Shown: positions 10,312 through 50,250, counted from the first letter of the stretch. The stretch is DNA of 64,000 bases from Gallionellales bacterium RIFCSPLOWO2_02_FULL_59_110 (GCA_001801215.1 MGXA01000067.1:15680-79679); one strand, 5' to 3'. A program made the numbers and translations. The notes: generated by a model not told the origin, from the sequence alone.

Positions 10312-11869
10312 CCCGGCGCGCCACCCGCTGCCCTGGCTGGCGCTGGCGGTGCTGCTTGCCTATCTCAACGCATTCTCCGGAAGTTTCCAGTTCGACGATT
10401 ACAAGGTCATTGTCGATAATCCCGCCGTCCATTCCTGGGATGCATGGTTTGCCGAACTCGGCCACGGCATCCGCCCGCTGCTGAAATTCAGCTACACCTT
10501 CGACTGGACGCTGGGGCTGGGTATCGCGGGCTTTCACCTCACCAACCTGCTCATCCACCTGACCAATGTCTGGCTGGTATTGCGCCTGTGCGAGACATTC
10601 ATCCCAAATAATCCATTGGCAAATTCAACCCGCCTCCCCCTTTGTAAAAGGGGGAGAGCTTGCGAGGGTGCCGAGGGAGATTTTTGTTTCCGTGCGACAT
10701 CCAAATCCCCCCTCACCCCCCTTTTTGCGAGTTGGGCAACAAACCGCCCATCCCTGCCTACCCCGATTCAAAGGGGGGAATACCCCGCCACGACCCAATT
10801 CATGGCTAATGGGCAATCTGGGTTCATCGAACAACAGCTGCTGCGCGAACGCCTGCGGGCGGTGCCGCTGTTTGCCGCGCTGCTGTTCGCCGTGCATCCT
10901 GCCCATACCGAAGCGGTCACCTACATCTGCGGGCGCTCCGCCTCGCTGATGACGCTGTTCTATCTGGGCGGCCTGCTCGCCTACGCCGAGGGGCGCACCC
11001 GCGAAAACAGCTTCATGCTCTACATGACCACGCCGCTGCTGTTCGTCCTCGCCTTGAGCGTGAAAGAGACCGCCGTGACTTTCCCGCTGGCGCTGCTGAT
11101 CTGGGAGCTTTGTCTCCGGAAACGGCGCGGCGCATGGAAGACGGCATTCAAAGCGCAATGGACAAGCTGGGCAGTGCTGCTGTGCGGCGCGTTGTACTTC
11201 CTGTTCAACGACAGCTACCTGTCGCAGATGGAACGCAGCGCGGAATTCAATGCCCCGCAGGGCAATCTCGCCACGCAACTCACCGCCTTCGCCTGGCTGA
11301 TGCGGCAATGGGCGCTGCCGCTATGGTTGAACATCGACCCCGATCTGCCCTTGCTGCGCGACTTGTCGGAAAGCCTGTTGCCGTTGGTATTTTTCGGATC
11401 GATTTTTGCGCTGATGCTGGCCTGCTGGCGCAAACGCCCGTGGCTGGGCTTCGCGCTGGCCTGGGCGATCCTCCACCTGTTGCCGCTGCACCTGTTTCTG
11501 CCGCGGCTGGACATCGCCAACGAACGCCAGCTCTATCTCGCCGGCTGGCCGCTGTTCCTCGCCCTCGCCGCCGAGCTGGCTCTGCGGCTGGATGCAAGAT
11601 CATTCAGGATTGCCTGCATCGCGTTGCTGTTCGCACTGGGCAGCCTGACGCTGCTGCGCAATCAGGTGTACGTTGATGAGATCGCGTTATGGGAAGACAC
11701 GGCGCGAAAATCGCCGCACAAAGCAAGGGTGCACAACAACCTGGGGTATGCCTACAAACTCGCCGGTCGCACCGGGGACGCGCGCCGCGAATTCATCCTG
11801 GCGTTGCGGCTCGACCCGAAACACGCCAAGGCACGCCACAACATCGATCAAATGGAAAAGGCGCCGTAA
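10292..11869 (+). CDS. TMTC-like GT-C membrane glycosyltransferase with C-terminal TPRs; carries a 75-aa in-frame mobile insert
   Basis: FQFDD acidic loop, FHLTNLLIH, HPAHTEAVTYICGR, KETAV, NIDPDL, ERQLYL, TPR ARVHNNLGYAY. Start at ATG 10292. Confidence 0.75.
   Translation: MRDNCADPARHPLPWLALAVLLAYLNAFSGSFQFDDYKVIVDNPAVHSWDAWFAELGHGIRPLLKFSYTFDWTLGLGIAGFHLTNLLIHLTNVWLVLRLCETFIPNNPLANSTRLPLCKRGRACEGAEGDFCFRATSKSPLTPLFASWATNRPSLPTPIQRGEYPATTQFMANGQSGFIEQQLLRERLRAVPLFAALLFAVHPAHTEAVTYICGRSASLMTLFYLGGLLAYAEGRTRENSFMLYMTTPLLFVLALSVKETAVTFPLALLIWELCLRKRRGAWKTAFKAQWTSWAVLLCGALYFLFNDSYLSQMERSAEFNAPQGNLATQLTAFAWLMRQWALPLWLNIDPDLPLLRDLSESLLPLVFFGSIFALMLACWRKRPWLGFALAWAILHLLPLHLFLPRLDIANERQLYLAGWPLFLALAAELALRLDARSFRIACIALLFALGSLTLLRNQVYVDEIALWEDTARKSPHKARVHNNLGYAYKLAGRTGDARREFILALRLDPKHAKARHNIDQMEKAP
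10603..10822. mobile_element. 220-bp MITE-like element inserted in-frame
   Basis: Imperfect 18-bp TIRs (cccaaataatccattggc vs gctaatgggcaatctggg, 13/18), TTCAT direct repeat at 10598-10602 and 10823-10827, internal ccccctt/aaggggg hairpins. Confidence 0.8.
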
Positions 11870-11894
11870 GTTCTGCGGCGCCCCCTGAGGAACC

Positions 11895-12083
11895 TTATCC
11901 GCGTGCGCCGACTTCTTCAAAACAATCATGGCGCCAGCCACACTCTTTGTTGTCACAATAGTTGATGGCGGAGGTGGCATAACAGGGCTTCTGTCCATCA
12001 TTGGCTTGAATCTGCCGGATAATTTCGGCCTGGATACTGGCTGGCCTAGTCTCTTCCGGTTTTGCGGTATTAGCAGTGTTCAC
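11895..12083 (-). CDS. Small Cys-rich protein (C-X8-C-X4-C-X5-C)
   Basis: GTG start behind a GGGAG RBS; AEIIRQIQ...CYATSAINYCDNKECGWRHDC resembles the C-terminal half of small SAP/Rho-N-like proteins. Confidence 0.5.
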   Translation of the reverse strand: MNTANTAKPEETRPASIQAEIIRQIQANDGQKPCYATSAINYCDNKECGWRHDCFEEVGARG

Positions 12084-12251
12084 GATAACTCCCGATTGAA
12101 AAATTTCGTATCGGGTAATCTATCACTGCCGCCAAGGAATACCTATATGCAGAAATACCTATATATTCCGGCATATTGACCGGAGCGATGGGATGTGCTG
12201 CGCAACAGTAACCGGTGTTGTATCCGGAACAACGCTTTCATCGAACCCCGT

Positions 12252-12701
12252 TCACTTGCAATGCGCCTTTATTTCCTGCTGCGCTTTCTCGATACGTTGT
12301 CGGCGCTGTTCATCTTCCAGGTAGGAGCGTTCTCCCTTGGCGTCGATTTCCACCACGCGCACCCCATCCTGCAACGCGCGTAAATTCTGTTGCAAGGTGG
12401 CGCAATAGGCTTTCTCTTCTTCTGCCCTGGCCTGCTCCTGCGCTGCCTTACCGGCTTCTTCCTTTTTCGATTGCTGCGCTTTTTTCAGCTCTGCTTCGCG
12501 TTCCGCGACGGTTTTCGGTGCGTCGGGCGCACTCGCGGGAGCGGCGGCCTCCGAAGGGATACGCAGCGTCTGCGTTTGCACATTGGGGGGAGGCTGCTGA
12601 TCCGAATAATGCACCTTGCCGTCCGCGTCCACCCACTTGTTGAGCCCGGCGAAAGCGTTTGCACTGTTCAGCATTAACAAAACCAGCAGAAATCTTTTCA
12701 T
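12252..12701 (-). CDS. DUF4124 domain secreted protein
   Basis: Signal peptide, KWVDADGKVHYSDQQPP motif, Glu/Lys-rich helix. RBS GGAGAGGTGA before ATG 12701. Confidence 0.85.
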   Translation of the reverse strand: MKRFLLVLLMLNSANAFAGLNKWVDADGKVHYSDQQPPPNVQTQTLRIPSEAAAPASAPDAPKTVAEREAELKKAQQSKKEEAGKAAQEQARAEEEKAYCATLQQNLRALQDGVRVVEIDAKGERSYLEDEQRRQRIEKAQQEIKAHCK

Positions 12702-12780
12702 GGCGATCACCTCTCCGGTTTAAATCACGGTTAAGTCTAGCACACGGAGGGCAGTGGCCGCACCGTGGAGCACGCCTTGT

Positions 12781-12968
12781 CCGGTTTCTCGCATCAAACC
12801 TCCCTCAAGCCAAGCAATGCTTCGCGGTATGAATCCGAAGCAACCCCGTGGTTATTGCACCCACATTTTTCTCCTGAAAAAAATGGGTTATCGGAAACAA
12901 TCCGTCAATCTATAGCGTCAGGTGCAATCATGCCTTTACTGCGCTTCGATTTTGATGCGATTGCCCTG
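12781..12968. mobile_element. ~190-bp MITE, left copy (inverted relative to 16610-16803)
   Basis: Reverse complement aligns along its length with 16610-16803; inner TIR tttgatgcgattgccctg intact, outer TIR degenerate. Confidence 0.8.
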
Positions 12969-13232
12969 GTCACGCAACATGAGCGATTACGCACAGAGTT
13001 AATAGCGGCAAATCCGTTCTCATGCGCCGCGTTGGAGTAATGATAAGAGCGTCTAACGTAATAATCACATACTGTCAATATGCCGAAAGGCCTAGCCGAA
13101 ATACATAGGCATTTCGGCATATTGTTTCTTATCCGGAACGTTGTAACACTGCGCAGCCGGAATAAATGGCAGCGACAAGCTCCGGTACCTTTTATCTTTG
13201 CTTTTCGGATCGAATAAAAAAGGGGGTTTGAA

Positions 13233-15319
13233 ATGAATACGGAATTCAGAAACAGCATCTGCGCACTCGTCGGTATCATAGCTCTCGGCGCCAGCCCGCA
13301 ATGGGCGATGGCATCCAGCGGCAATGGAAGTAAAGGACTAAGAGTGACCGTGCCGCCGGAAAGACGGGTCGAGAGACCGCAGGTGGATATGCCCGAAAAC
13401 GTGATGACAAGCGCAATTATACAAAGGATCGAGGACAATAAGCGCCAGCCCATCAAGGATAAGGCAGGAAAGATTCAATACATCATCACGTTCGCCGATG
13501 ATGCACCAAAGAACTATGCAGCCAAGGCAATCACGGATAGCCGTTTTGCCAATTGGCACGACAGCAAAGTCATCCAACTTTTGCACGACACCGAGACCGC
13601 TCACGGTTTTTCGGCAACGCACCTTTACAGTCAGACGATGCAGGGCCTCGCCGCTTTTCTGACTCCACAACAAGCTGACAATTTAGGCCGTGACAGACGT
13701 GTCAAGCGAATGAGTCCAAATATGCCGACCGAATTGAGTGGCGGAATTTGGAGCGACACGAATCCCACCTACTATGAGACTCTGCCTTGGGGTATCCAAG
13801 CGGTAGGCGGCAACAAGGCGAGCAATGGCGCTGCCACGGTTTATGTTGGTTGATACCGGGATCGGCTATAACAGCGATTTAAACATATCCAGCCGTTGGT
13901 CCGCATCTGGCTCGTGCCTGATCGGCAACTACGCACATTCAACATTTGTCGCCGGAATCATCGGCGCCATGAATAATGGTTCCGGCGTAATCGGGGGTCG
14001 ATTCGGGTGTCAATATTGTTTCTTTGGCTTATGGCGATAATACCTGTGCCTGGGGTAGCGAAAGCACGGCAAATATGATCTCGGCTTTTGAAGAGGCGAA
14101 GGTGCGGATCAGGGCAAGCGGGCGAGTGGGCGTGGTTAATTTCTCATCCAACCCTATTGATTATTATACGAACCAAATTCCCATAACGGCAAGAGATAGT
14201 ATAAGTGGCCTGATCGCTCCCAACCCATCAACGGGTTATCCCGGCGCTTTTTTTGTCCAGTCCGCCGGCAACCACAAGACTGACGCTTGCTATCGCAGTT
14301 TTAATGACCACCTGCCGTCAGATGGTGCGATGGTCATCGGAGCAATGGACAACAACGGTCAGCCGGTTCAACCCTTGAATGACGATAACGGCTTCAACCA
14401 GGGAGGCACCATTTTTTCTTTTCCTGAACCTGGATCAAATTTCGGTGCATGCGTCGATGCATGGGCGCCTGGCAAAAAAATAAAATCCACATGGAACGAT
14501 GGCAGTAACCCGACAGGTGACGGCACCTCATTCGCTGCGCCGCATATAGCGGGAGCGGCGGCATACCTGATCGAAACGAACCCGTCTTTACAGACGCCCG
14601 CCGCTGTTGAAAATGCCGTGCGCGCCCATATGGTTTATAACGGTGCTTCCGATCTCAGTAACCTCGCTGTTGGTGCCGTCAATCTCGATGGCACCGGCCA
14701 TGTCGCCCGCCCAACGGTCGAATTCAAGATTGGCTACGCGCCATCGGATCCCGCTCCCGCGCCGATCGACGTTTATAGCGATGCGTCATTTCTTCTACGC
14801 TACGATTCTGTCGGTGCGCAGAGCTGCGATCTGTATGGCTACGTCAATGGCAATCTGTGGTATTACGTTCTGAATTTTCAGCCGAGCTACAATTGGGGTT
14901 TTGTACAATTGAACCCCGACCATTACCGGTGGGAAGTCAGTTGCCGGTCGGTAAACGGCACCATCAATACCGCCAGTGCTTCCGTCACGGTCGCGGCCAT
15001 ACCGCCGGCACCAAGCGCTGGTTTCAGCGTCAATGGCATGGCGGTCGCCAATGGCGCAACGATGAGTTTTACATACCCCCAATCCTTTTCGCTCGCGTAC
15101 GATAGCACCAATACGACTTTATGCAATTTGTATGCGTATCGCGCCGCTACCGGTGGTTTCTTGGGATATTGGTATTCAATCGACAACTTTTATCCTTCCT
15201 TTAACTGGGGTATGGTCACGCTCGACCCCGGCAATTATCGATGGTACATCGATTGTATGAATGCGAATTTCCCGGACCGTCCACATGCCACTTCGATGCT
15301 CAACATAACCGTTTTATAG
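13233..15319 (+). pseudogene. Secreted subtilisin-like S8 protease (propeptide, catalytic domain, 2 C-terminal repeats) split by two +1 frameshifts
   Basis: Pieces 13233-13853, 13825-14040 and 14024-15319. Removing one G at 13848-49 and one G at 13993-97 gives a 694-aa ORF with VVDTG, HSTFVAG, SAGN and DGTSFAAPH. Confidence 0.8.
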
Positions 15320-15383
15320 CGCGTATCCAATCGATCGTGGGTGCGATGCACCCATGATCGGCAAGTTATACACGGAGAACCTC

Positions 15384-16604: not shown

Positions 16605-16609
16605 CCTAT

Positions 16610-16803
16610 CAGGACAATCGCATCAAAATCGAAGCGCAGTGAAGGCATGAATCGCATCTGACGCTATAAATTGACGGATTGTTTCCGATAACCCATTTTT
16701 TTCAGGAGAAAAATGTGGGTGCAATAACTACGTGGTTGCTTCGGATTCATATCGTGATGCGTTGCTTGGCTTGGCTTGGGAGAGATTTGATGCGATTGCC
16801 CTG
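16610..16803. mobile_element. 194-bp MITE, right copy, with own 18-bp TIRs
   Basis: caggacaatcgcatcaaa (16610-27) and tttgatgcgattgccctg (16786-803), 17/18 complementary. Confidence 0.82.
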
Positions 16804-18692: not shown

Positions 18693-18797
18693 GCTGGATT
18701 TAAGCGGGCCGGGGCAGCACATGCCCCGTTTCATTGCGATGGTTACGCAGTCCAAGGGTATAGCTGTAGCCGGGTAGTTCATGCGGCAGATTACTTA

Positions 18798-18907
18798 AGG
18801 ACGCGCTGATTTATTCGGTTTCGTCGTTCCCGCGAAGGCGGGAACCCAGTTAAGTAAAGGCACTGGATCCCCGCCTTCGCGGGGATGACGAATAAATCAG
18901 CGCCTCC
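18798..18907. mobile_element. 110-bp MITE, copy 1
   Basis: TIRs (a/g)ggacgcgctgatttattcg and cgaataaatcagcgcctcc, flanked by TTA/TTA; identical to 37806 and 50141 copies except the first base. Confidence 0.88.
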
Positions 18908-18985
18908 TTAAAGGCTTGTAACTACTCAGGTCGAAATGACGATACTCACGGAAGCACCACAACACCAGTCCCCTCTCCCGCCTGC

Positions 18986-19141
18986 GCATAAGCGCTAACT
19001 TATCCTGTTCCTCCCCCTTCAAGGGGGAGGCTAGGTGGGGGATGGGGTCAATCTCCATGAAATTCAGCCCCATCCCCACCCCAGCCCTCCCCTTGAAGGG
19101 GAGGGAGACATGCCTTGGCGTGCTTAAGTTAGCGCATATGC
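18986..19141. mobile_element. 156-bp MITE with 8-bp target duplication
   Basis: 17-bp TIR gcata(a/t)gcgctaactta (16/17), CCGCCTGC at 18978-85 and 19142-49, internal ctcccccttcaagggggag hairpin pair. Confidence 0.82.
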
Positions 19142-19273
19142 CCGCCTGCGGGGGATAGCTTGCGAGGGGGTACGCCGTGCTCTTACCTTGGGCGATAACA
19201 AAAAGCTCGCACAAAACCGAGTAACAGACGAGCATTGCGCCGCATGTTTTATGAGGTATCGCACCCCTGCCGC

Positions 19274-22200
19274 TCACTTCAACTCCCCAAAGAAATTCCT
19301 GACCGCCAGCACGCGCTGATGCAGGTCGCCGTATTTCAACTCGATGCGCAGCCTGTCCTGCCCGGCCATCTTGATGTGCCGTTTGCTCTGGATCATCGTG
19401 ATGATTTTCAGCGGGTCTATCGGCGGTTCCGGCACGAACTGGATCACGATGGCCTCCGATGACGCGTCCACTTTACTGACGCCGAGCGGTTTGGCGAGGA
19501 TGCGCAGACGATGGCTGTCGAGCAGGGTCTGCGCGGGTTCGGGCAGCAGGCCGAAGCGGTCGATCAATTCCTGATGCATGTCGTCCAGGTCTTGCTGCGT
19601 GTTGCAGTTGGCGAGACGCTTGTAGATCACCAGGCGCTGGTGGATGTCGCCGCAATAGTCGCTGGGCAACAGCGCCGGGGTATGCAGGTTGATCTCGGTG
19701 GTCACGCCCAGCGGGTGCGCCATGTCCGGCTCTTTGCCCAGTCTTAGCGAGCTGATCGCGGCGTTGAGCATGTCGGTGTACAGCGAAAAACCGATCTCCT
19801 GCATCTCGCCGCTCTGCGATTCGCCGAGCACTTCGCCCGCACCGCGTATCTCCAGATCGTGCATCGCAAGGTAGAAACCCGAGCCCAACTGTTCCATGGA
19901 CTGGATCGCCTCAAGACGTTTTTTTGCCTGTGCGGTAAGCGCTTCGGTTTCCACCAGCAGATAGGCATAGGCCTGGTGATGCGAACGCCCGACGCGACCG
20001 CGCAGTTGATGGAGTTGCGCGAGGCCGAAGCGGTCGGCGCGATTGATCAGGATGGTGTTGGCGGTCGGCACGTCGATGCCGGTCTCGATGATGGTGGTGC
20101 ACAGCAGCACGTTGAAGCGCTGCTGGTAGAAGTCGCGCATCGCCTGTTCCAGATCGCGTTCGCCCATCTGGCCGTGCGCCACGCGGATGCGCGCCTCCGG
20201 CAGCAGGGTCTCCAGCTTCTCCGCCATGTTGGCGATGGTCTCCACCTCGTTGTGCAGGAAGTACACCTGTCCGCCGCGCTTGAGTTCGCGCAGCACCGCC
20301 TCGCGGATCACCCCCTGGCTGTACTGGCTGACGAAGGTCTTGATCGACAGGCGCCGCTGCGGCGCGGTGGCGATCACCGAGAAATCGCGCAGGCCTTCCA
20401 GCGACATCGCCAGCGTGCGCGGGATCGGCGTGGCGGTCAGCGTCAAGACATCCACTTCCGCACGCAACGCCTTGAGGCGCTCCTTTTGCTGCACGCCGAA
20501 GCGGTGTTCCTCGTCGATGATGACCAGCCCGAGGTTGTGGAACTTCACGCCCTTCTGGATCAGCTTGTGCGTGCCGATGATGATGTCGAGCCTGCCGTCA
20601 GCCATATCCTTCAGCGCCTGCGTCTGCTCCTTCGCGGAGCGGAAGCGCGACAGCTCGGCGATTCGCACCGGCAGGTCGGCAAAGCGATTGGAAAAGTTCT
20701 GGAAATGCTGCTCGGCGAGCAGCGTGGTCGGCACCAGCACCGCGACCTGCTTGCCGTCCAGCGCCGCGACAAACGCGGCGCGCAGCGCCACTTCGGTCTT
20801 GCCGAAGCCGACGTCGCCGCATACCAGCCGGTCCATCGGCTTGCCGGATTGCAGGTCGGCGATCACCGCCTCGATGGCGGCGGCCTGATCGGGTGTTTCC
20901 TCGAAGCCGAATCCGGCGGCGAACGCCTCGTAGTCGTGCGGCGCCAGCTTGAACGCATGGCCCTTGCGCAGCGCGCGCTGTGCGTACAAGTTGAGCAACT
21001 CGGCGGCGGTGTCGCGCACCTGCTGCATCGCGCGCCGTTTCGCCTTGTCCCACGCGCCGCTGCCCAGCTTGTGCAAGGGTGCAGCTTCCGGCGCGCCGCC
21101 GCTGTAGCGACTGATGAGGTGCAGTTGCGCCACCGGCACGTAGAGCTTGTCCTCCCCCGCGTATTCCAGCAGCAGGAATTCGTTCTCGCCCTCGCCGAGG
21201 TCGAGGTTGACCAGCCCGCGATAGCGCGCGATGCCGTGCTGCTCGTGCACCACCGGATCGCCGACCTTGAGTTCGGACAGGTCGCGCAACATGCCCTCGA
21301 CATTGCTCCTCTTCCCGGCGCGCGCGGCGCGGCTGCGCGGCTGCGCCGCATACAGCTCGCTTTCGGTAATGAGAGCGGTCTTTTCATCGGTCAGGATGAA
21401 GCCGTTTTGCAGCGGGGCTACGCACAGCATGAAGGCCGCGTCGTTTTGCAGAAATTCGGCATAGTTCTCGCACAGCGCCGGAGCGAGGCCGTATTCGTGC
21501 AAATAACCCGCCATGATTTCGCGCCGACCCAGGCTGTCGGCGAGCAGCAGCACGCGCCCTTTGTAATTTTGCAGAAAATCCTGGAAGGTCTGCGTGGGTA
21601 TGTCGGCGCGGCGGTTCACGGCGATGGGCGGGATGGCGGCCGTGTGGCAGGGGGTTAGGTTTTTTGAGTCAACAGCAACCCCTCCCGGCCTCCCCTTATC
21701 AGGGGAGGAGTCTGGTTCTCCCCCTGACAAGGGGGAGTTAGAGGGGGTTTGTTTTTGAACTACATCAATGCGCGCAAACTCTTTCGCCCTGATGAAAAAC
21801 CGCTCCGCATCCAGAAACAGCTCCTTCGGTTCCAGCAGCGGGCGCTGCGGATCGCCGCGCAGCAGGTTGTAGCGCGATGCGGCATCCTTGGCGAAGGTCG
21901 CAATGGCCTCGTCGATCCCGTGGTGCAGGCACAGCGTGGCGTGCTTCGGCAGGTAGTCGAACAGCGTGGCGGTCTGCTCGAAGAACAGCGGCAGGTAATA
22001 CTCTATGCCCGCCGGGGCGATGCCCTTGCTCACGCCCTTGTAGATAAATGATTTGGACGGGTCGCCCTCGAATCTATCCCTGAAGTTCTGGCGGAAAGTC
22101 GCCTGGCCTTTTTCGTCGAGCGGAAACTCGCGCGCGGGCAACAGGCGGATTTCCGGCACCGGGTACAGCGTGCGCTGCGTATCCACGTCGAAGCTGGCGA

Positions 22201-22753
22201 TGGTCTCGATCTCGTCGTCGAACAGGTCGATGCGGTACGGCAGCACGCTGCCCATCGCGAACAGGTCGATGATGCCGCCGCGCACGCAGTATTCGCCGGG
22301 GGCGAGCACCTGCTGCACATGGTTGTATCCGGCGAGGGTTAACTGTTCGCGCAGTTGCGCAACGTTCAATTTTTCGCCGCGCTTGAGGAAGAAGGTATAG
22401 GCGGCGAGATGCTCGACCGGCGGCAGCGGGTACAGCGCGGTAGTGAGCGGCACGATCACCACGTCGCAAACCTGGCTGCGGATGTGGTGCAGCGTCGCGA
22501 GGCGCTCGGAAATCAGGTCCTGATGCGGCGAAAAATGGTCGTATGGCAGCGTTTCCCAGTCGGGCAAGAGATGCACGCGCAGGCCGGGCGCAAAGAACGG
22601 GATCTCTTCCACCAGCCGCTGCGCCTCAAGCGCATTGGCGGCGATGATTGTCAGCGGAGAATGCTGCGCGGCATACTGTGCCAACGCCAGCGCGTCGGAC
22701 GAACCGTGCAGTTGCGTATAGCGGGGGAGTGAATGCTTTGAGCTGAACAACAT
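19274..22753 (-). CDS. mfd: Transcription-repair coupling factor Mfd
   Basis: UvrB-like N-terminus, RID (VVHEQHGIARY), helicase motifs GDVGFGKT, DEEHRFG, TATPIPRT, QLRGRVGR, TRG motif, C-terminal TRCF domain. Confidence 0.97.
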   Translation of the reverse strand: MLFSSKHSLPRYTQLHGSSDALALAQYAAQHSPLTIIAANALEAQRLVEEIPFFAPGLRVHLLPDWETLPYDHFSPHQDLISERLATLHHIRSQVCDVVIVPLTTALYPLPPVEHLAAYTFFLKRGEKLNVAQLREQLTLAGYNHVQQVLAPGEYCVRGGIIDLFAMGSVLPYRIDLFDDEIETIASFDVDTQRTLYPVPEIRLLPAREFPLDEKGQATFRQNFRDRFEGDPSKSFIYKGVSKGIAPAGIEYYLPLFFEQTATLFDYLPKHATLCLHHGIDEAIATFAKDAASRYNLLRGDPQRPLLEPKELFLDAERFFIRAKEFARIDVVQKQTPSNSPLSGGEPDSSPDKGRPGGVAVDSKNLTPCHTAAIPPIAVNRRADIPTQTFQDFLQNYKGRVLLLADSLGRREIMAGYLHEYGLAPALCENYAEFLQNDAAFMLCVAPLQNGFILTDEKTALITESELYAAQPRSRAARAGKRSNVEGMLRDLSELKVGDPVVHEQHGIARYRGLVNLDLGEGENEFLLLEYAGEDKLYVPVAQLHLISRYSGGAPEAAPLHKLGSGAWDKAKRRAMQQVRDTAAELLNLYAQRALRKGHAFKLAPHDYEAFAAGFGFEETPDQAAAIEAVIADLQSGKPMDRLVCGDVGFGKTEVALRAAFVAALDGKQVAVLVPTTLLAEQHFQNFSNRFADLPVRIAELSRFRSAKEQTQALKDMADGRLDIIIGTHKLIQKGVKFHNLGLVIIDEEHRFGVQQKERLKALRAEVDVLTLTATPIPRTLAMSLEGLRDFSVIATAPQRRLSIKTFVSQYSQGVIREAVLRELKRGGQVYFLHNEVETIANMAEKLETLLPEARIRVAHGQMGERDLEQAMRDFYQQRFNVLLCTTIIETGIDVPTANTILINRADRFGLAQLHQLRGRVGRSHHQAYAYLLVETEALTAQAKKRLEAIQSMEQLGSGFYLAMHDLEIRGAGEVLGESQSGEMQEIGFSLYTDMLNAAISSLRLGKEPDMAHPLGVTTEINLHTPALLPSDYCGDIHQRLVIYKRLANCNTQQDLDDMHQELIDRFGLLPEPAQTLLDSHRLRILAKPLGVSKVDASSEAIVIQFVPEPPIDPLKIITMIQSKRHIKMAGQDRLRIELKYGDLHQRVLAVRNFFGELK
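21677..21759. repeat. Palindromic element in-frame inside mfd
   Basis: Double hairpin homologous to intergenic 7434-7557; read as ..QTPSNSPLSGGEPDSSPDKGRPGGV.. on the minus strand. Confidence 0.75.
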
Positions 22754-22889
22754 GAACGGTTCGATGCAAATCCGGGTAGTGCGTTCACTCTTCGATACAT
22801 CAGGGTAAACGCAAAGGGAGCGATGGCTGGTACAAATGGGCGCATTATAAGCCATGCGCGCGAACAGTTTTTTAATTTACAATCGCGCC

Positions 22890-36028: not shown

Positions 36029-36045
36029 AATTAACGGGGGCTATC

Positions 36046-37390: not shown

Positions 37391-37469
37391 GTAGCCCGGA
37401 TGGAGCAACGCGTAATCCGGGAATTCGGCGCTCCGGCCGTCCCGGATTCCACTGCGTTTTATCCGGGCT
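37391..37469. repeat. REP doublet, GTAGCCCGGATG family
   Basis: gtagcccggatggagcaacgcgtaatccggg ... cccggattccactgcgttttatccgggct. Confidence 0.78.
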
Positions 37470-37593
37470 TGCTGCGCTTATTGCACCCTACCGAGCTGTA
37501 AAAATGCCACGTTTCCACCCTCTCCCCAACTCCCCCTTGCAAGGGGGAGAGATATTTTGACTAATGGGTTATTTGGCTTTAAGCTGGGCGAAG

Positions 37594-37786
37594 CGTAACT
37601 ACTCGGGCGGAAGTAGCATGCTCGAAAATCGCCACAACGCCAGCCCCTTCCCATGAAAGGGGGAAGTTAAAATGGGGGGAGTGTGGAATCATCGCAAAGC
37701 ATTTTTCCACCCCGCCTTTCTACCCCCATCCCGGCCTGTCCCCTGCAATGGGGAAGGAGAAAAACGGCAGCACCTGAGTAGCTACG
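37594..37786. mobile_element. ~193-bp TIR-bounded miniature element
   Basis: cgtaactactcggg and cctgagtagctacg (12/14 inverted) enclosing ccccttccc..aaaggggg hairpins. Confidence 0.6.
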
Positions 37787-37805: not shown

Positions 37806-37915
37806 GGGACGCGCTGATTTATTCGGTTTCGTCGTTCCCGCGAAGGCGGGAACCCAGTTAAGTAAAGGCACTGGATCCCCGCCTTCGCGGGGATGACGAA
37901 TAAATCAGCGCCTCC
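37806..37915. mobile_element. 110-bp MITE, copy 2
   Basis: Same sequence as 18798-18907; flanked by TGA/TGA. Confidence 0.88.
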
Positions 37916-41066: not shown

Positions 41067-43670
41067 ATGACCGCAACCATCCTCGTCATCGACGACAGCG
41101 AAGACGACCGGCACCTCTACCGGCGCGCCCTCAAGGATGTCGACTGTCACCTGGTGATGGCGTCATCGGCGAAAGAGGGCCTCATATGCATGGCCGATCC
41201 GATGCCGGACGCGATCCTGCTCGATTACAACCTGCCGGATATGGACGGGCTCAGCCTTGTCAGGGTGCTTGCCGAATGCTCGGGCACGCACCCTCCGGTC
41301 ATCATGCTCACCGGGGAAGGCAGCGAGCAGGTGGCCGTCGAGGTGATGAAGAGCGGCGCAGACGATTACCTGGTCAAGGACACGGCGGGACAATACCTGC
41401 GGCTGCTGCCGGGCGTGATCAAGCGGGCCATGACAGCGCATGCGCAGCGCGAGCAGAACCGGCGGCTGCAGCAGGAAACGGCAAGGCTGCTGCACCGCAA
41501 CCGGATATTGATGCAGAACTCCGCGGACGGCATCCACGTGGTGGACAGCCAGGGCAACCTCATCGAGGCCAACGACACCTTCTGCCGCATGCTGGGCTAC
41601 ACCCAGGCAGAAGTGGCCGGCCTCAATGTCGCCGACTGGGATGCGCAATTTCCGCCCGATGAGTTGCGGGCGTGCTTGGCCGGGTACATCGGCAAAAACG
41701 GCGTGTTCGAGACCGTGCACCGCCGCAAGGACGGCGCGCTGATCGATGTCGAGGTCAGCGCCTCCGGCGTGGAGATGGAAGGGCAGAACGTTATCATCGC
41801 CTCGAGCCGCGACATCACCGCGCGCAAGCTGGCCGAAGTGACGTTGAAACTGAGCAAGACCATTATCGAGACGACCTATGACGGGTTCTGGCTGTTCGAC
41901 ACTGACGGTTATCTGCTCGACGTGAACCAGGCCTACGCGGATATGGTTGGCTATACGTGCCAGGAACTGACCGGCATGCACATCTCCCGATTATCGGTGC
42001 TCTCCAACACGCCGGAATTAGTCCGGGCGCGGATCGGGAATGCCATGTCTCATGGGCTTAACCATTTTGAAACGCAGCATCGCCATAAGGACGGGCATGT
42101 GGTGGACTTCGAGGCGTCCGCTGCCTACGTACCCGAAGCGAATTGTTTATTTTCTTTCATTCGCGACATCACCGAGCGCAAGCAAAACGAAGCGATGCTG
42201 AAGCAGCACAAGCTGGTGCTCGATACCTCGATAGACGGCTTCTGGGTGGTCGATATGCGGGGTGATTTGCTGGAAGCCAACCAGGCGTACGCGAAAATGT
42301 CCGGCTACACGGTCGAGGAACTGGTGAACATGCACATCAGCCAACTGGAGGCGATAGAGCTGACAGTGGAAGAGGTTCTGGCGCATATCGCAAAAATCAG
42401 GGCGCGAGGGTATGGCCGGTTCGAGACGCGCCATCGCCGCAAGGACGGGCATGAGATCGACATCGAAGTGTCCGCCACCTCTATGGAGGAAACGCAGCGC
42501 CTCTACGTTTTCTGTCGCGACATCACCGAACGCAAGCGGGCCGAAAAAACGTTGCGCGAGGCCGACCGGCACAAGGACGAGTTTCTCGCCATGCTGGCCC
42601 ACGAGCTGCGCAACCCGCTGGCGCCGATCCGCAATGTCGCCCATATCCTCGGACGGCTGGGGTCGGCGGAGCCCAAGATCAAGTGGGCGCAGAAGATTAT
42701 AGAAGAACAGGTGAGCCACCTCACCCGCATGGTGGACGACCTGCTGGACGTCTCGCGCATCGCCCGCAGCAAGATCGCGCTCAGGAAGGAGACCATCGAG
42801 TTTAGTGTGCTGGCCGAACAGATCATCGAGTCTGCCCGGATGCTGGCGGAGAACAAGGGGCACCATCTTGCGGTGCGGATGCCGGATCAGGCGGTGCAAC
42901 TCGAAGGCGACCCGGTGCGCCTGTCCCAGTTGCTGCTCAACCTGCTGGACAATGCCGCCAAATACACCCCGGACGGCGGACGGATCGAATTTGCCGCGCG
43001 CCTGGACGGGACGGAAATCGAAATCAGCGTGCGCGATAACGGCATGGGCATCGCGGCGGAACTGCTGCCGCAAGTGTTCGACCTGTTCCAGCAGGGCGAG
43101 CGCACCCTGGATCGCGCCCAGGGCGGGCTGGGCATCGGCCTCACGCTGGTGCAGCAACTGGCCGGGATGCACGGCGGGCGGGTAGATGCTCACAGCGCAG
43201 GGCCGGGGCAGGGCTCGACCTTTACCGTCCGGCTGCCGGCCAGGGCCATGACTGTACAGCCCTCCATGCACGAGGTCGGAAGCCGGAGCCGCTCCGTTCC
43301 CGGCATGCGCGTGCTGGTCGTGGAAGACGATCATGCCGTGGCCGACAGCACCGCAGTATTGCTGGAGATGGAGGGGTATCAGGCGCGCGTCGCCGAGAGC
43401 GGCCAAGCCGCGCTGGAGCAGGTTCCCGAGTTCCGCCCGCAGGTGGTGCTGCTCGACATCGGCCTGAAGGGCATGGACGGCTTCGAGACCGCGCAACGGC
43501 TGCGGCAGCTGCCGGAAGGGCGCGACCTGCTCCTGGTTGCGGTAACCGGTTATGCCGACAGCGCAATCAGGGAGCAGGCGCTGGCATCCGGTTGCGATCA
43601 TTTCCTGGTCAAGCCGGTGAAGTTCAATGTTCTCAGCGACTTGCTCGACAAGCTGGCTGCGCCGGATTGA
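41067..43670 (+). CDS. Hybrid kinase REC-PAS-PAS-PAS-HisKA-HATPase-REC
   Basis: N-terminal REC (VIDDSEDD, LLDY), three PAS, LAHELRNPL, NAAKYT, GLGIGL, C-terminal REC (VVEDD, LLDI, KP). Confidence 0.92.
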   Translation: MTATILVIDDSEDDRHLYRRALKDVDCHLVMASSAKEGLICMADPMPDAILLDYNLPDMDGLSLVRVLAECSGTHPPVIMLTGEGSEQVAVEVMKSGADDYLVKDTAGQYLRLLPGVIKRAMTAHAQREQNRRLQQETARLLHRNRILMQNSADGIHVVDSQGNLIEANDTFCRMLGYTQAEVAGLNVADWDAQFPPDELRACLAGYIGKNGVFETVHRRKDGALIDVEVSASGVEMEGQNVIIASSRDITARKLAEVTLKLSKTIIETTYDGFWLFDTDGYLLDVNQAYADMVGYTCQELTGMHISRLSVLSNTPELVRARIGNAMSHGLNHFETQHRHKDGHVVDFEASAAYVPEANCLFSFIRDITERKQNEAMLKQHKLVLDTSIDGFWVVDMRGDLLEANQAYAKMSGYTVEELVNMHISQLEAIELTVEEVLAHIAKIRARGYGRFETRHRRKDGHEIDIEVSATSMEETQRLYVFCRDITERKRAEKTLREADRHKDEFLAMLAHELRNPLAPIRNVAHILGRLGSAEPKIKWAQKIIEEQVSHLTRMVDDLLDVSRIARSKIALRKETIEFSVLAEQIIESARMLAENKGHHLAVRMPDQAVQLEGDPVRLSQLLLNLLDNAAKYTPDGGRIEFAARLDGTEIEISVRDNGMGIAAELLPQVFDLFQQGERTLDRAQGGLGIGLTLVQQLAGMHGGRVDAHSAGPGQGSTFTVRLPARAMTVQPSMHEVGSRSRSVPGMRVLVVEDDHAVADSTAVLLEMEGYQARVAESGQAALEQVPEFRPQVVLLDIGLKGMDGFETAQRLRQLPEGRDLLLVAVTGYADSAIREQALASGCDHFLVKPVKFNVLSDLLDKLAAPD

Positions 43671-43676
43671 CCAGTT

Positions 43677-43780
43677 AGCCCGGATGAAACGCAGTGAAAT
43701 CAGGGAACGGGTATGATGCCCCCGGATTCCGCTATCGCTGCATCCGGGCTACAAAACCCGCAAGGCTCACCTTCGTTCAA
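43677..43780. repeat. 104-bp repeat (REP doublet plus flank), inverted partner at 47450-47553
   Basis: Reverse complement of 47450-47553 with 3 mismatches. Confidence 0.88.
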
Positions 43781-43847
43781 ACCCTTGCCAATGCCAGATA
43801 AATGCAAAACTCTTGTCATGTTTTGACATCATTTGACCGGTAAGAGA

Positions 43848-44054
43848 CTAATAATGCGGCGGCCTTTCGTTCGCGGGCATTCCCTCATTCCTTGCTTCAG
43901 CCAGCGATTGGATGTGTCTTGTGAGTGATGCGCAAACCGCTTCAAGGCGATCCAGCTTTTGTTGCTGCTGATAGACCGTTTTGTTAAGTTCTTCGATCAG
44001 GTCTTCCTGGAAGGTGATTTTTGCTTCGATGTTTATTAAACGTTCTTCGTTCAT
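43848..44054 (-). CDS. slyX: SlyX family protein
   Basis: RLINIEAKITFQEDLIEELNKTVYQQQ...ERPPHY. Confidence 0.92.
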   Translation of the reverse strand: MNEERLINIEAKITFQEDLIEELNKTVYQQQQKLDRLEAVCASLTRHIQSLAEARNEGMPANERPPHY

Positions 44055-44957: not shown

Positions 44958-45182
44958 ATGAACGCAGATAAAACGCCCAGCCTGGACGGCATCACCCTCG
45001 AAACCATCGTCACGCAGCTATCCGAAAGCATGGGCTGGGAAGCGATGGCCGCTGCCGTGCCGGTGCGCTGCTTTACGCACGACCCCAGCATCAAATCCAG
45101 CCTGAAATTCCTGCGCAGGACGCCGTGGGCGCGCGCGAAAGTGGAGCAGTTGTATCTGCAACACCTTAGAACAGCGCGTTAA
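44958..45182 (+). CDS. VF530/DUF2132 family DNA-binding protein
   Basis: LDGITLE.IV..L...GW, CF..DPSIKSSLKFLRRTPWARAKVE.LY. Confidence 0.88.
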   Translation: MNADKTPSLDGITLETIVTQLSESMGWEAMAAAVPVRCFTHDPSIKSSLKFLRRTPWARAKVEQLYLQHLRTAR

Positions 45183-45229
45183 ATCAGATTTTGCTTGCCC
45201 AGAAAACTCGCCTTCCGCCACTCGCCGCC

Positions 45230-45775: not shown

Positions 45776-45853
45776 TCTGCCCACGCGGTTTGGAATCAGC
45801 GTGGGCACACCCTTCCGGTGCGAGAACCTCTGCGAGGCAGAAACGTGCCCACC

Positions 45854-47263
45854 CTACAGCGCTCGCACCTTCACCGCCTTGCCCTTCACCTTGCCTGCCG
45901 ACAATTTGCGCACGGCGTCGCTGGCGATGTTGCGCGCGACGGCGACATAGGTGGATTGGTCGGTCACGGTGATCTTGCCGACCTGCTCGCGCGTGAAACC
46001 GGCTTCGCCGGTGAGCGCGCCCAGCACATCGCCGGGGCGGATCTTCTCCTTGCGCCCACCAAGAATTTGCAGCGTCACCATCGGTGGCACCAGCGGAGAT
46101 TCGTCGTCGTTTTGCAGTTCGGCAAGCTCGTGCCACTCCGGTTCGATGCGCATCATTTTGGCGATACCGATGATGCGATTCCGCTCGGACGGGCTGCACA
46201 GGCTCAGCGCCCAGCCGTTCTCGTCGGCGCGGCCGGTGCGTCCGATGCGGTGGATGTGGACTTCCGGGTCGGGCGTGACATCGACGTTGATGACCGCTTC
46301 GAGTTGCGCGATGTCCAGGCCGCGCGCGGCGACATCGGTGGCCACCAGCACCGGGCAGCTGCGGTTGGCGAACTGGATCAGCACCTGGTCGCGTTCGCGT
46401 TGTTCCATGTCGCCATTCATGGTCAGTGCCTTGATGCCCTGCGCGTGCAGCGCTTCCAGCAGCGAGCGGCATTGCTGCTTGGTGTTGCAGAACGCCAGCG
46501 TGCTGACCGGGCGGTAGTGCCTGAGCAACTGGCCGACGGCCTGCAAACGCAGCTCGTTTTCCACCTTGTAGAAGCGCTGACGTATTTTGGTTTCCTCATG
46601 CTGTTCCAGCAGCTTCACTTCCTGCGGTGCGCGCATGAACTGGCGCGCCAGCCGCGCGATGCCGTCGGGATAGGTCGCCGAGAACAGCAGCGTCTGGCGC
46701 TCGGACGGGCAACGCTTTGCGACAAACGCGATCTGTTCGTAAAAGCCCATGTCCAGCATGCGATCCGCTTCGTCGAGCACCAGCGTGTTGAGTGCTTCCA
46801 GGTTCAGCGTGCCGCGCTCCATGTGATCCATGATGCGTCCCGGCGTGCCGACGACGATGTGCGCGCCGTGCTCCAGGCTGGAGGTCTGCGCGCGCATGAT
46901 GCTGCCGCCGCACAGCGTCAGTATCTTGATATTGTCGGCGGAGCGCGCCAGACGGCGGATCTCTTGCGTCACCTGATCCGCCAGCTCGCGCGTCGGGCAC
47001 AGCACCATCGCCTGCACCGCAAAGCGGCGCGGGTTCAGCTTGGTCAACAGCGCCAGCGCGAACGCTGCGGTCTTGCCGCTGCCGGTCTTCGCCTGCGCGA
47101 TCAGGTCGTGTCCGGCGAGCGCGACCGGCAGGCTGGCCGCCTGTATCGGCGTCATCGTCAGATAGCCGAGCTGCTGCAAGGTCGCCTGCATGCCGGGCGA
47201 CAGCGGTAGTTCGTTGAAGGAGCGGCCGGCAGCAGCAGGGGAAGGCGGGTTGGTATTGGTCAT
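45854..47263 (-). CDS. dbpA: DEAD-box RNA helicase DbpA
   Basis: Q motif, AKTGSGKT, PTRELA, DEAD, SAT, HRIGRTGR, C-terminal GGRKEKIRPGDVLGALT domain. Confidence 0.95.
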   Translation of the reverse strand: MTNTNPPSPAAAGRSFNELPLSPGMQATLQQLGYLTMTPIQAASLPVALAGHDLIAQAKTGSGKTAAFALALLTKLNPRRFAVQAMVLCPTRELADQVTQEIRRLARSADNIKILTLCGGSIMRAQTSSLEHGAHIVVGTPGRIMDHMERGTLNLEALNTLVLDEADRMLDMGFYEQIAFVAKRCPSERQTLLFSATYPDGIARLARQFMRAPQEVKLLEQHEETKIRQRFYKVENELRLQAVGQLLRHYRPVSTLAFCNTKQQCRSLLEALHAQGIKALTMNGDMEQRERDQVLIQFANRSCPVLVATDVAARGLDIAQLEAVINVDVTPDPEVHIHRIGRTGRADENGWALSLCSPSERNRIIGIAKMMRIEPEWHELAELQNDDESPLVPPMVTLQILGGRKEKIRPGDVLGALTGEAGFTREQVGKITVTDQSTYVAVARNIASDAVRKLSAGKVKGKAVKVRAL

Positions 47264-47449
47264 GCGTTTCCTCGAAAAGCAGTTAGACATCAGAGAACAC
47301 GGAGATCACAGAGGAAGCGTTGTAAGCAGGGATGGGCGACTTGTCGCACAACTCGCAATAACAAAAGCTTGCAACTCGGAAGCGCTTCACCTTTTCGGTG
47401 AAACTAAATAATTTGGTGAAACCACGTCTTTCTCTGTGTTCTCTGTGGC

Positions 47450-47553
47450 TTGAACTAAGGTGAGCCTTGCGGGGTTTGTAGCCCGGATGCAGCGATAGCG
47501 GAATCCGGGGGCATCATACCCGTTCCCGGATTTCACTGCGTTTCATCCGGGCT
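47450..47553. repeat. 104-bp repeat, inverted copy of 43677-43780
   Basis: See the partner at 43677. Confidence 0.88.
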
Positions 47554-47586
47554 TGTTTGGCTCCTGCTTGCACGGCTCGGGTTGAT

Positions 47587-48918
47587 TTATGGCGCTCCCG
47601 AAACGATGAATTCTGGCGCCGGGCCGGGCTGGGGCAGGACGTGATGCCCGACCATCGCCGGGGCAGGTGCCGCGATTGGCCGGCCTGTCGCAGGGCGGCA
47701 TCCGGCGGCGGCCCAGTGTATCCCCATGGCAGACGCCACGATGGGCAGGCGCTTGTAGAAACTGCCGTTCAATTGCGTATAGCGCAGCAGATAGCTCTGG
47801 AAACACTCGAACAAATGCCGATCCGGCCTGGCGTGCTGCGCCTCCTGCCAGAAATCGGCCAGCAGCCCGCCAAAAGTCAACCCCTTCATGTCATAGATGG
47901 CGCTGCCGCAAACCTTGACCGGCGCTCCGTGAAAAAGGGCCGACAAGCCGACTGTGCTGTTGACCACCACCACCCCGCAGGCGAGCTTCAACAAGGTGGG
48001 GAGATGCTGGTCATGAATATAGAAACATCTATCCTCCAGCCCGAGCCGCACGATCCGCTCGGCAATAAACTTTGTGTAGTCGCAATAACCGCGATCCATC
48101 GGGTGGTGCTTGATGACCAGTGCGGTATTTTTGGGCGCATGGGCAGCAAAAGATGTCATCGCTTCGTCGATAAACTGGGCCACCGAATTGAAGCCGGAAT
48201 GCGTATGAATCTGCGCGTCGTTATGCACTTGCAGCGGCACCAGGAAGAAACGTCCGGCAAGCTTGCCGGTCAACCGCGCGGAGACTCCCCGCTCTTTGAA
48301 CGCGTAATATCCCTTGCGCCACAGGGAGCGCAACCAGGGCAATCCTTCCAGCCACGACAAGGGCCGGTGATGCCGGTAATGCGGGAAAAGCGGCTTCAGC
48401 AGGCCTGCCGCAAAGTAATACAGCATCGCCCAGAGCATGGCAAACCAGAAGGTGCTGCCGACCTGTTGCGGCTGTTCGACGGGGGGCATCGGGTTGTTCA
48501 GGTAAAAAATCGGGTTGCGCGGAATCAGCGAATTGCCGTTGGCGCCGAACCGTTCGAGCGTGATGTGGTTCGGCCTGGTATAGCCTTCCTCGAACACGCC
48601 GATTTCCAGCCCGCGCCGCAGGGCGACTTCATGCGCCAGGCGGTGAACCGGGCGGCAATCGCCGAACAGCAGCACCGCGTCGACGTTCAACCGGTCGAGC
48701 AGCACTTCCAGGTACGCCGACCATTCCTCCATGCCGCCGCAGAAGCTGAATGCGTTTGACGGGTAGAAGAGCCAGTCGCCGCCGTTGAAATTCACCTTGA
48801 ACACCTGCGCCCCGGCTTGTTCCAGATCCTTGGCGAACCTCCAGAAGAAAGGCCCGACCGGACCTTGCAGCAGCAATATCCGCTTGCCTCTGAACTGGTT
48901 CAGGCTCGACGTCAGCAT
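47587..48918 (-). CDS. kpsS: Capsule beta-Kdo transferase KpsS
   Basis: ILLLQGPVGPFF, FEEGYTRP..ITLE..G.NGNS, VPLQVHNDAQI, IKHHPMDRG, NSTVGLSAL. Confidence 0.9.
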   Translation of the reverse strand: MLTSSLNQFRGKRILLLQGPVGPFFWRFAKDLEQAGAQVFKVNFNGGDWLFYPSNAFSFCGGMEEWSAYLEVLLDRLNVDAVLLFGDCRPVHRLAHEVALRRGLEIGVFEEGYTRPNHITLERFGANGNSLIPRNPIFYLNNPMPPVEQPQQVGSTFWFAMLWAMLYYFAAGLLKPLFPHYRHHRPLSWLEGLPWLRSLWRKGYYAFKERGVSARLTGKLAGRFFLVPLQVHNDAQIHTHSGFNSVAQFIDEAMTSFAAHAPKNTALVIKHHPMDRGYCDYTKFIAERIVRLGLEDRCFYIHDQHLPTLLKLACGVVVVNSTVGLSALFHGAPVKVCGSAIYDMKGLTFGGLLADFWQEAQHARPDRHLFECFQSYLLRYTQLNGSFYKRLPIVASAMGIHWAAAGCRPATGRPIAAPAPAMVGHHVLPQPGPAPEFIVSGAP

Positions 48919-48936
48919 GGCCGTTGCATGTCCGGG

Positions 48937-49329
48937 TTAAAACTGGCGTTCCAGACGAACGTTGATGCGCGGCATCAGCGCCTGCTCGCGCCCGGAAAAC
49001 AGTTGCGAGCTGCGCTCGAAAAGCACTTGCATGAGCCTGCCGGAATCGTCCCTGTCGCTCAACCCCATCACCAGCTTGTGCCCGGCCCGGAACCTCCATA
49101 CCAGTTTCTTCTCGTTCTCCATCAGGCCCGGCGCGAACGGCCCGGCGGAATCCTCCTCCGCAAGCAGCCGGTAGCTGGGAGCGCGCAACCCGTCCGTGGC
49201 GGTCTCGCCGAAACCGGCCGCCGCCGCATATGGCGAGCACGACGCGCAGGGCAGGAGTAATGCGAGAACCAGGCATACCCTTTTCCGCAACGCCAGCCTT
49301 CCAAAGTTTTTCCTGTCAGCGGTTTTCAT
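48937..49329 (-). CDS. Hypothetical exported protein
   Basis: Basic N-terminus followed by a hydrophobic stretch; in line with kpsS. Family not recognised. Confidence 0.4.
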   Translation of the reverse strand: MKTADRKNFGRLALRKRVCLVLALLLPCASCSPYAAAAGFGETATDGLRAPSYRLLAEEDSAGPFAPGLMENEKKLVWRFRAGHKLVMGLSDRDDSGRLMQVLFERSSQLFSGREQALMPRINVRLERQF

Positions 49330-49866
49330 AATGCCCTCCGTTCGTGAATCGGCGCGCGCCGGTCAGGTCGGGATTGCCAAAAGAGCTCGCCGTTCGTGCC
49401 GCGCTAAACCTTGGCGCAAGTATCTGCAAAAGGCACGCGGAATACAGCGAGGCGAAATGCGTATTTCGCCGCGTCTGAAACTTCAATCGGGTAGTGTGTT
49501 TTACTGAAGAAAAAAAATGCGCCGTAGGCGGCGTCTACATAGATGCGACAAGCGCGGCCTGCGCCGGTTTGCGACGATATTTATGTTGCGCTTTGCGGTT
49601 GCTTATAACTTATCGGATTAGGTGATTTTACCTATTTAAAATCCGGAGAATTCGTTACAAGATAGCGGCGCATTGTCATGGAAATGCACTGCGGGTGGCG
49701 GACGGTCCGGCAGCATGGGTATACGGGTCCCGCGCTACGAACACTGCCTGATCCGCCCATGCATTGCGCTATGAGAAAAGTGCAAAGAGCGCGGCCATGT
49801 ATCGATTTCAATGGCCGAAATTATTTCGCGGGGTCGCCCGCTTTGTTAATGCAAGGAGATATTCAA

Positions 49867-50070
49867 ATGGCAACAGGTACAGTTAAATGGTTCAACGACT
49901 CGAAGGGTTTCGGTTTTATCTCTTCCGACGACGGCAGTGGCGATCTGTTCGCGCACTTTTCCGCAATCAGCGCGAGCGGTTTCAAGTCCCTCCAGGAAGG
50001 CCAGAAGGTCGTCTTTGAAGTGGTGCAAGGCATGAAGGGCAAGCAGGCTTCCAACATCAGGCCTTGCTGA
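49867..50070 (+). CDS. Cold-shock (CspA family) protein
   Basis: [38 protein letters not shown]. Confidence 0.95.
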
Positions 50071-50140
50071 CGTCGCAAATCGCAAATCTCAAAGCATCGT
50101 TCCCATGCTCCGCGTGGGAACGCTGGCCGTGCCGCTCTAA

Positions 50141-50250
50141 GGAGGCGCTGATTTATTCGTCATCCCCGCGAAGGCGGGGATCCAGTGCCTTTACTTAACT
50201 GGGTTCCCGCCTTCGCGGGAACGACGAAACCGAATAAATCAGCGCGTCCC
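50141..50250. mobile_element. 110-bp MITE, copy 3 (reverse orientation)
   Basis: Reverse complement of 37806-37915; flanks TAA/TCA. Confidence 0.88.

Follow-up and report, generated by a model that had tools for sequence, protein, structure and literature searches.

The stretch of DNA analysed here (hereafter the window) covers 64,000 nucleotides, C67:15680-79679, of a Gallionella (Gallionellaceae) draft genome of 2.81 Mb in 112 contigs, with a GC content of 59%. A self-comparison revealed 674 repeated stretches. Small repeats are unusually abundant, and an Rfam search of the repeats returned no family match for any of them. The window contains four kinds of small element, (a) to (d), each with the terminal inverted repeats (TIRs) of a transposon around palindromic hairpins. 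A previous reading made from the sequence alone (the sequence-only reading) had described them as unrelated TIR shells wrapped around hairpins of the repetitive extragenic palindrome (REP) type. All four turned out to be genome-wide repeat families at the places it gave, and the shells, with target-site duplications (TSDs) of 4, 10, 5 and 8 bp, do surround palindromic doublets, although only (a) contains a literal REP. [quoted passage not shown] Here, ordinary insertion-sequence (IS) transposases are the most likely means by which hairpin repeats lacking their own enzyme are copied.

Element (a), which we call MITE-a, occurs three times in the window. Copy 1 (18799..18907, plus strand) has 19-bp IS5-type TIRs, GGACGCGCTGATTTATTCG and GGAGGCGCTGATTTATTCG, with a heterodimer of CGTC-tagged REPs between them, and lies between TTAA duplications at 18795-18798 and 18908-18911. 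Copy 2 (37807..37915, plus strand) has the TSD TGAG on either side, and copy 3 (50141..50249, minus strand) is flanked, in element orientation, by TGAG and TTAG, which differ by one mismatch. The 109-bp sequence runs GGACGCGCTGATTTATTCG...CGAATAAATCAGCGCCTCC. BLAST and pattern scans of the genome detected 30 complete copies, together with others cut by contig ends. The median pairwise identity of the complete copies was 0.99, and the 19-bp TIRs were present in all (30 out of 30). Identical 4-bp flanks were observed in 24 out of 30 copies, nearly all of them YTAR (CTAG 10, CTAA 5, TTAA 4, TTAG 3, CTAT 1 and TGAG 1). The first flank base covaries between the left and right sides, so the duplication is 4 bp long. 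The element had been read as 110 bp with a TNA duplication; the correct values are 109 bp and a 4-bp YTAR, of which TNA is the inner 3 bp. Folding predicts a single long hairpin for the unit (-42 kcal/mol, z -10). It is a MITE in having TIRs within 15-30 bp, a TSD of fixed length, small size, no coding sequence and many copies, and a transposase recognising its TIRs is predicted to move it in trans.

The interior of MITE-a consists of two inverted hairpins, CGTC-GTTCCCGC-GAAG-GCGGGAAC-CCAG and a partner with the stem ATCCCCGC. The units agree with the definition of the CGTC-1 REP, namely a CGTC tag, an 8-bp stem beginning with A-T pairs, a 4-nt loop and a CCA tail; the MITE-borne stems GTTCCCGC and ATCCCCGC keep their pairing through compensatory changes, and one arm begins with G-C. 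A structural scan detected 89 CGTC units in the genome, of which 58 lie in complete MITE-a copies, 7 in copies cut by contig ends and 24 are free, giving 65/89 (73%) inside MITE-a. The habit of CGTC-1 REPs of forming dimers was evident in both settings, with a dimer in every MITE-a and nine inverted dimers and six singles among the free units, whose sequence is CGTC-ATTCCCGC-GCAG-GCGGGAAT-CCAG. The outer borders of the free dimers, CGTC...GACG, are sharp. Their spacers vary from 45 to 130 bp, compared with 13 bp in MITE-a, and in none of the nine was there a YTAR flank or a convincing TIR remnant. Di Nocera et al. 2013 (PMC3733652) equated the CGTC-1 REP with the dRS3 repeat of Neisseria, and the literature gives no known or dedicated transposase for CGTC-tagged REPs. 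The neighbourhood of a cluster of CGTC units on contig C101 consists of riboflavin genes and a small island, with no REP-specific enzyme.

An unpaired hit to the TIR pointed to an IS5-family element of 1241 bp at C94:369-1609, with the TIR GGAAACGCAGATTTATTC. The encoded protein, of 333 aa, contains DUF772 and DDE_Tnp_1 domains and reaches 330 bits against NF033581, the NCBIfam model for IS5 (cut-off 140). At 18/18 positions the TIR of this IS agrees with a minor subfamily of MITE-a (C96, C8 and C6), itself 87% identical to the major one; with the major subfamily it agrees at 15/18 positions. The target is shared as well: the IS is flanked by CTAG/ATAG on C94 and by CTAG/CTAG in a relative (G006), and MITE-a uses YTAR. 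The proposal that the TIRs might be matched to IS copies in the genome was thus borne out for (a). None of the 20 IS5-family elements of the genus that we compared (the C94 IS and 19 loci of other Gallionella species) carries the CGTC hairpin; the hairpins of (a) are therefore not internal remnants of the parental IS, the outcome that the sequence-only reading had named as fatal to its proposal.

For the distribution of the junction between TIR and CGTC hairpin we surveyed 151 Gallionellaceae genomes from 18 genera, and for shells (b) and (c) 61 genomes of the genus. An exact scan for the junction gave hits on over 104 contigs, from metagenome-assembled genomes of Gallionella, Sideroxydans and other Gallionellaceae. 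Among the surveyed genomes it was present in 43 out of 151, representing 10 out of 18 genera. In other species the homologues are likewise built of a CGTC dimer between two TIRs, with YTAR duplications; their core hardly varies, and their TIR tips are variable. The junction loci of relatives included 74 standard MITE-a copies, with a perfect 4-bp TSD in 54 of them. The junction comes in bursts, with 33 in G085, 31 in the genome of the window, 22 in G031 and 21 in G038, as one would expect of a transposable element. Variants in relatives comprise single-hairpin forms of 62-72 bp and forms in which the CGTC loop is split by a 20-bp palindrome, an approximately 38-bp unit (TTGCGAGCAGCCGC...) or an approximately 58-bp unit (AACCAGCGACTT...CATCAG). 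We also looked for a parent IS carrying the hairpin among 104 loci selected by the junction and found none, the long TIR pairs being neighbouring MITEs. In three relatives (L064, L079 and L152), pairs of MITE-a bracket 0.2-1.9 kb of other DNA, an arrangement that could represent composite transposons.

Element (b), which we call b-ext, is a 154-bp MITE (18987..19140, plus strand) with the IS4-like TIR CATAWGCGCTAACTTA and the 10-bp TSD CCCGCCTGCG at 18977-18986 and 19141-19150; the TIR pair and duplication noted earlier are real, but the length is not 156 bp and the TSD is not 8 bp. Its cargo is the b-core (19008..19107, no strand assigned), a palindromic doublet of about 100 bp consisting of hairpin, G-tract, loop, C-tract and hairpin (fold z -4.7). 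An iterated nhmmer search detected 17 full and 24 partial b-core copies in the genome, and 10 out of 17 full copies were free, with no surrounding inverted repeat or duplication. Shell-less hairpins, which had been suggested as a check, therefore exist for both cargos, the CGTC REP dimers and the b-core. The b-ext shell has three copies in this genome, plus two old one-sided copies, and is also present in G052 and G058. Four out of six b-ext insertions (C33:4977, twice in G052, and in G058) split a CGTC hairpin loop and have 10-bp duplications. The hairpin split by the window copy belongs to a d-type element; it is similar but has no tag. The context of the sixth insertion is unclear. The left arm (GTAACTACTCAGG...) of this host, the second d-type element of the window, lies at 18917..18976 (plus strand), and its right end, near 19220-19232, is uncertain. 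The nested look of the elements is thus owed partly to the opposite relation, in which the IS4-like MITE inserts into REP hairpin loops. The b-ext TIR shows only partial resemblance to an IS4 element on C27 (...CACTTAAC), and its 10-bp TSD is within the 9-13 bp of the IS4 type. A full-length IS with the b-ext TIR was absent from the 61 genus genomes.

Element (c), a 220-bp MITE (10603..10822, plus strand), has the TIRs CCCAAATAATCCATTGGC and CCCAGATTGCCCATTAGC and the TSD TTCAT at 10598-10602 and 10823-10827; the length and the 5-bp size of the TSD are those given by the sequence-only reading. The shell, with ends CCCARATWRTCCATTRGC, has about ten copies in the genome, with 5-bp TSDs such as ATCAA, TTCAA, TTAAA, ATAAA and ATGAA, and was present in 38 out of 61 genus genomes. 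A solo c-type end (GCCAAATAACCCATTAGT; 37560..37577, minus strand) adjoins a CCCCC hairpin. The cargo of shell (c) varies. It is b-core-like in the standard local form, the window copy having an extra insert of about 45 bp; at C87 it is a b-core nearest to free cores (0.80), not to other c interiors; at C33 and in G052 it is a single CGTC hairpin, itself struck by b-ext; and in G069 it is two hairpins. The G010 copy (173 bp) has no hairpins at all and is the hairpin-less shell that had been proposed as a thing to look for. Two candidates for a parent of shell (c), in G016 and G056, were pairs of c-type ends with about 5 kb between them, of which the G016 pair, on examination, encloses ordinary genes; an IS1380-like element on C40 has ends that differ from those of shell (c).

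Element (d), 193 bp (37594..37786, plus strand), has the TIR CGTAACTACTC / GAGTAGCTACG and a diverged b-core doublet as cargo. The window copy has no clean duplication (5/8 positions), and the family, with ends (C)GTAACTACTCAGG and seven copies in the genome, shows perfect 8-bp TSDs in two sister copies, C83:28182 (CATTTTGC) and C17:1345 (AGAAAAAC); (d) is thus a real shell family, as had been proposed. Its cargo ranges from one hairpin to various doublets. The IS66 transposase, looked for as a parent, is absent from this genome. Copies bearing TSDs were found in all four families.

The genome encodes one RAYT, on C54 (NF047646 at 188 bits), a gene that had been recommended for search. On either side of it lie GTAGCCCG... 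REP doublets forming hairpins (REPINs) of the GTAG type. There are about 75 GTAG units in the genome and four REPINs within the window. The first, at 37391..37469 (plus strand), consists of two inverted REPs without a shell and belongs to the family that flanks the RAYT; those at 43674..43752 (plus strand, within a high-identity unit of about 205 bp) and 47478..47554 (minus strand) are inverted partners; and the fourth (50270..50347, plus strand), of a second GTAG family (GTAGGGCGCAATAAC...), adjoins MITE-a copy 3. No GTAG REPIN was found in a TIR/TSD shell. Conversely, the cargos of (a) to (d) lack the GTAG tag and do not belong to the REPIN/RAYT system. The cargo of (b) to (d) carries neither GTAG nor CGTC and is therefore not a REP in the RAYT sense.

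The sequence-only reading had also listed a 194-bp "cassette MITE" with a REP-like foot. Its left arm (12781..12968, plus strand) does hold a degenerate half of a GTAG-type REP, but together with the right arm (16610..16803, minus strand) it makes up no dispersed MITE family. The arms, of about 190 bp, bracket a 3.6-kb gene block, and each ends with the start of a short open reading frame (ORF; MPLLRFDFDAIAL...). A related inverted pair lies on C79 (25228 / 34788), with arms 9.5 kb apart. With one local inverted pair and one related pair, the cassette was therefore not counted as a shell family.

Taken together, the four elements are probably composite MITEs, in which the ends of DDE-type ISs surround resident palindromic doublets that are moved in trans as passengers. 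The shells would be the short TIRs of an IS5-group element in (a), an IS4-like element in (b), a family with 5-bp TSDs in (c) and a family with 8-bp TSDs in (d), and the interior would be a resident doublet not derived from an IS, the CGTC REP dimer in (a) and the G/C-tract b-core in (b) to (d). A transposase acting in trans would bind the TIRs, move the whole unit and leave the family-specific TSD, so that the cargo would be amplified as a passenger. The idea that REP hairpins hitch-hike on DDE-type elements is well supported for (a), but it does not apply to the true, RAYT-linked GTAG REPINs, which are not in shells. Cargo and shell combine variously, one shell being found with different cargos and one cargo in different shells, and the CGTC loops have received b-ext and three tiny elements. 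Composites may arise and be reshuffled by nesting or by recombination at hairpins, because hairpin loops are insertion hot-spots and hairpins presumably recombine or delete.

Several observations weigh against this interpretation. We saw no transposition event and no empty MITE-a site: wherever another assembly extends as far as the element, three MITE-a sites that we compared were occupied (97-100% identity), and in same-population assemblies and one strain at 97% identity the tested MITE-a sites were all occupied or the assembly breaks inside the MITE. The TIR of the resident IS5 element is off by 3/18 positions from that of the abundant MITE-a subfamily, and an IS with exactly that TIR was not found. 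For shells (b), (c) and (d) the searches gave no parent IS, so that an IS origin could still apply to their interiors. The b-core has no REP tag, and the core-shell junctions show no duplication.

These points bear on three other explanations. One holds that the elements are ordinary deletion derivatives, their hairpins being subterminal parts of the parental ISs and the free hairpins being look-alikes or decayed MITEs. Shells (b), (c) and (d) have no known parents with which their interiors could be compared, and halves of the b-core lie in the leader of the IS1380-like element on C40, both of which speak for such an origin. For (a), however, the genome's IS5 element and its 19 relatives are free of the CGTC hairpin, the borders of the free CGTC dimers are sharp, their spacers are long and vary, TIR remnants are lacking, and the CGTC unit is the dRS3 repeat of Neisseria; moreover, shells swap cargos and cargos swap shells. 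We therefore regard this explanation as unlikely. The reverse argument, that the free CGTC dimers and b-cores are MITEs that have lost their TIRs and that DDE transposition is their sole source, draws on the 73% of CGTC units found in MITE-a and on the lack of a known transposase for CGTC REPs. It appears highly improbable given that 0 out of 9 free dimers have TIR remnants or YTAR, that their spacers measure 45-130 bp as against 13 bp, and that CGTC-1 REPs are far more widespread than the composite.

It is also quite unlikely that the shell is the target and not the vehicle, with REP dimers entering pre-existing palindromes by a TSD-less, REP-specific mechanism; this view follows Di Nocera et al., who described REP dimers as insertions in palindromes. 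This explanation has a precedent in the literature (PMC3733652), fits the core-shell junctions without duplication and accords with hairpin loops being clear insertion hot-spots for small elements. Yet it is the shell that the TSD flanks, identity between whole units is 99%, the ends of the shell are those of IS5, and neither this genome nor the 104 loci of relatives yielded an empty a-shell. A TSD-less insertion into a palindrome could have been the single founding event of the composite. Going beyond the composite-MITE interpretation, DDE transposases of the IS5 family might be the missing mobiliser of CGTC REPs, these REPs being mainly TIR-shell cargo in Gallionellaceae and perhaps in Halothiobacillus and elsewhere, with loop nesting producing a combinatorial, self-renewing kind of non-coding mobile DNA; this extension is speculative, and we hold it to be doubtful.

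The finding is not a new category, because REP dimers in palindromes and REP-targeting ISs were already known. Di Nocera et al. 2013 (PMC3733652) described CGTC-1 dimers in palindromes of Halothiobacillus neapolitanus and GTAG-15 dimers in Anabaena variabilis; they read the palindrome as an insertion target and reported no TSD and no link to an IS or transposase. As in MITE-a, their REP dimers (heterodimers in H. neapolitanus) lie regularly inside an inverted-repeat pair, and no empty palindromes were found. By contrast, the shell of MITE-a has YTAR TSDs and IS5-family ends, four different shells are involved here, and the composite is family-wide. REP-targeting ISs include ISRm22 (IS4 family), all copies of which lie within REPs, IS1397, IS621 and ISPpu9/10, and the IS4 and IS5 families are both represented (Tobes and Pareja 2006, PMC1525189). 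Like ISRm22, b-ext has IS4-like ends and sits in REP hairpin loops in several species; unlike such ISs, it is a 154-bp non-autonomous element that carries another palindromic repeat, and no autonomous partner was found.

The Neisseria dRS3 repeats and NIMEs and the Escherichia coli BIMEs are similar in that the CGTC-1 unit equals dRS3 and in their inverted pairs, variable spacers and mixing with other small repeats; NIMEs and BIMEs are, however, arrays without TIR and TSD borders, whereas the units here are discrete and bounded by transposon ends. The IS-derived MITEs of bacteria (Correia/NEMIS, RUP and MITEAba12, among others) share with these elements a length of 100-220 bp, TIRs, a family-specific TSD, multiple copies, the absence of an ORF of their own and, presumably, dependence on a transposase acting in trans, but here an independent family of free-living palindromic repeats fills the interior instead of IS-derived or anonymous sequence. 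REPINs of the REPIN-RAYT system are inverted REP doublets, as are the cargos, but they have no TIR shell or TSD, and the cargos of (a) to (d) have no GTAG and no associated RAYT.

These results offer a concrete and testable route for the spread of "orphan" CGTC REPs, about three quarters of the genome's units lying in an IS5-type shell with the marks of recent transposition. They also indicate that resident repeat families can supply the interiors of MITEs, and that MITEs for their part are drawn to the loops of REP hairpins. Annotation pipelines that sort by TIR alone or by hairpin alone would misfile such composites.

We also recorded further small repeats and insertions. In a relative (L163, G058:C4:1660-2050), a four-level nest has a MITE of about 117 bp, sharing its ends with the IS4 element of C27, in the right TIR of a b-ext, which contains a b-core and lies inside a CGTC hairpin. 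The b-core copy at C110:188-284 is apparently inside coding sequence, its flanks reading as an RND/CzcA-type transporter. The approximately 58-bp element (AACCAGCGACTT...hairpin...CTTAGTCGAATGGCTAGTTGTTTCATCAG) lies inside the b-core G-tract in this genome (C33:10883-11035, C40:1700-1790 and C104:28129-28233) and inside CGTC hairpin loops in other Gallionellaceae (L077, L094, L096, L111 and L130), and it looks like a loop-targeting micro-element. The IS1380-like element at C40:1594-3584 (140 bits, cut-off 180) is bounded by CTAGTGTCGCGTCACG inverted repeats and has a second copy near C18:190 and C104; its 5' leader contains halves of the b-core as well as the 58-bp element. The window copy of MITE-c lies within an ORF (10196-11869), and the long open frame stays open.

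The unit of about 205 bp in which a GTAG REPIN is embedded has 11 copies, 95-99% identical, at 43650-43855 in the window and at ten other loci (on C41, C23, C26, C71 and others). To the left of the REPIN it has CTAAGCCGGACAAGCCGGAACCAAAC, a motif that precedes a different REPIN type in another assembly, and to the right a tail of about 100 bp ending in ...TTGACATCATTTGACCGGTAAGAGACTAA, which looks like a promoter. A small hairpin repeat of the GTTCCCATGCTCCGCGTGGGAAC type, with about eight copies, lies at 50094-50138, adjoining MITE-a copy 3, and at 53394-53438. Another palindromic repeat, of the type TTGCGAGC-AGCCGC...GCGGCT-TGCCTGCT, also has about eight copies, including 21676-21749 and 7433-7547 in the window; it occurs inside a large ORF (19274-22855) and, in relatives, is inserted in CGTC hairpin loops of MITE-a. 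Finally, at least ten tandem repeats of 84 bp (28 codons) are located at 62661-63421, inside a minus-strand ORF of 1389 aa.

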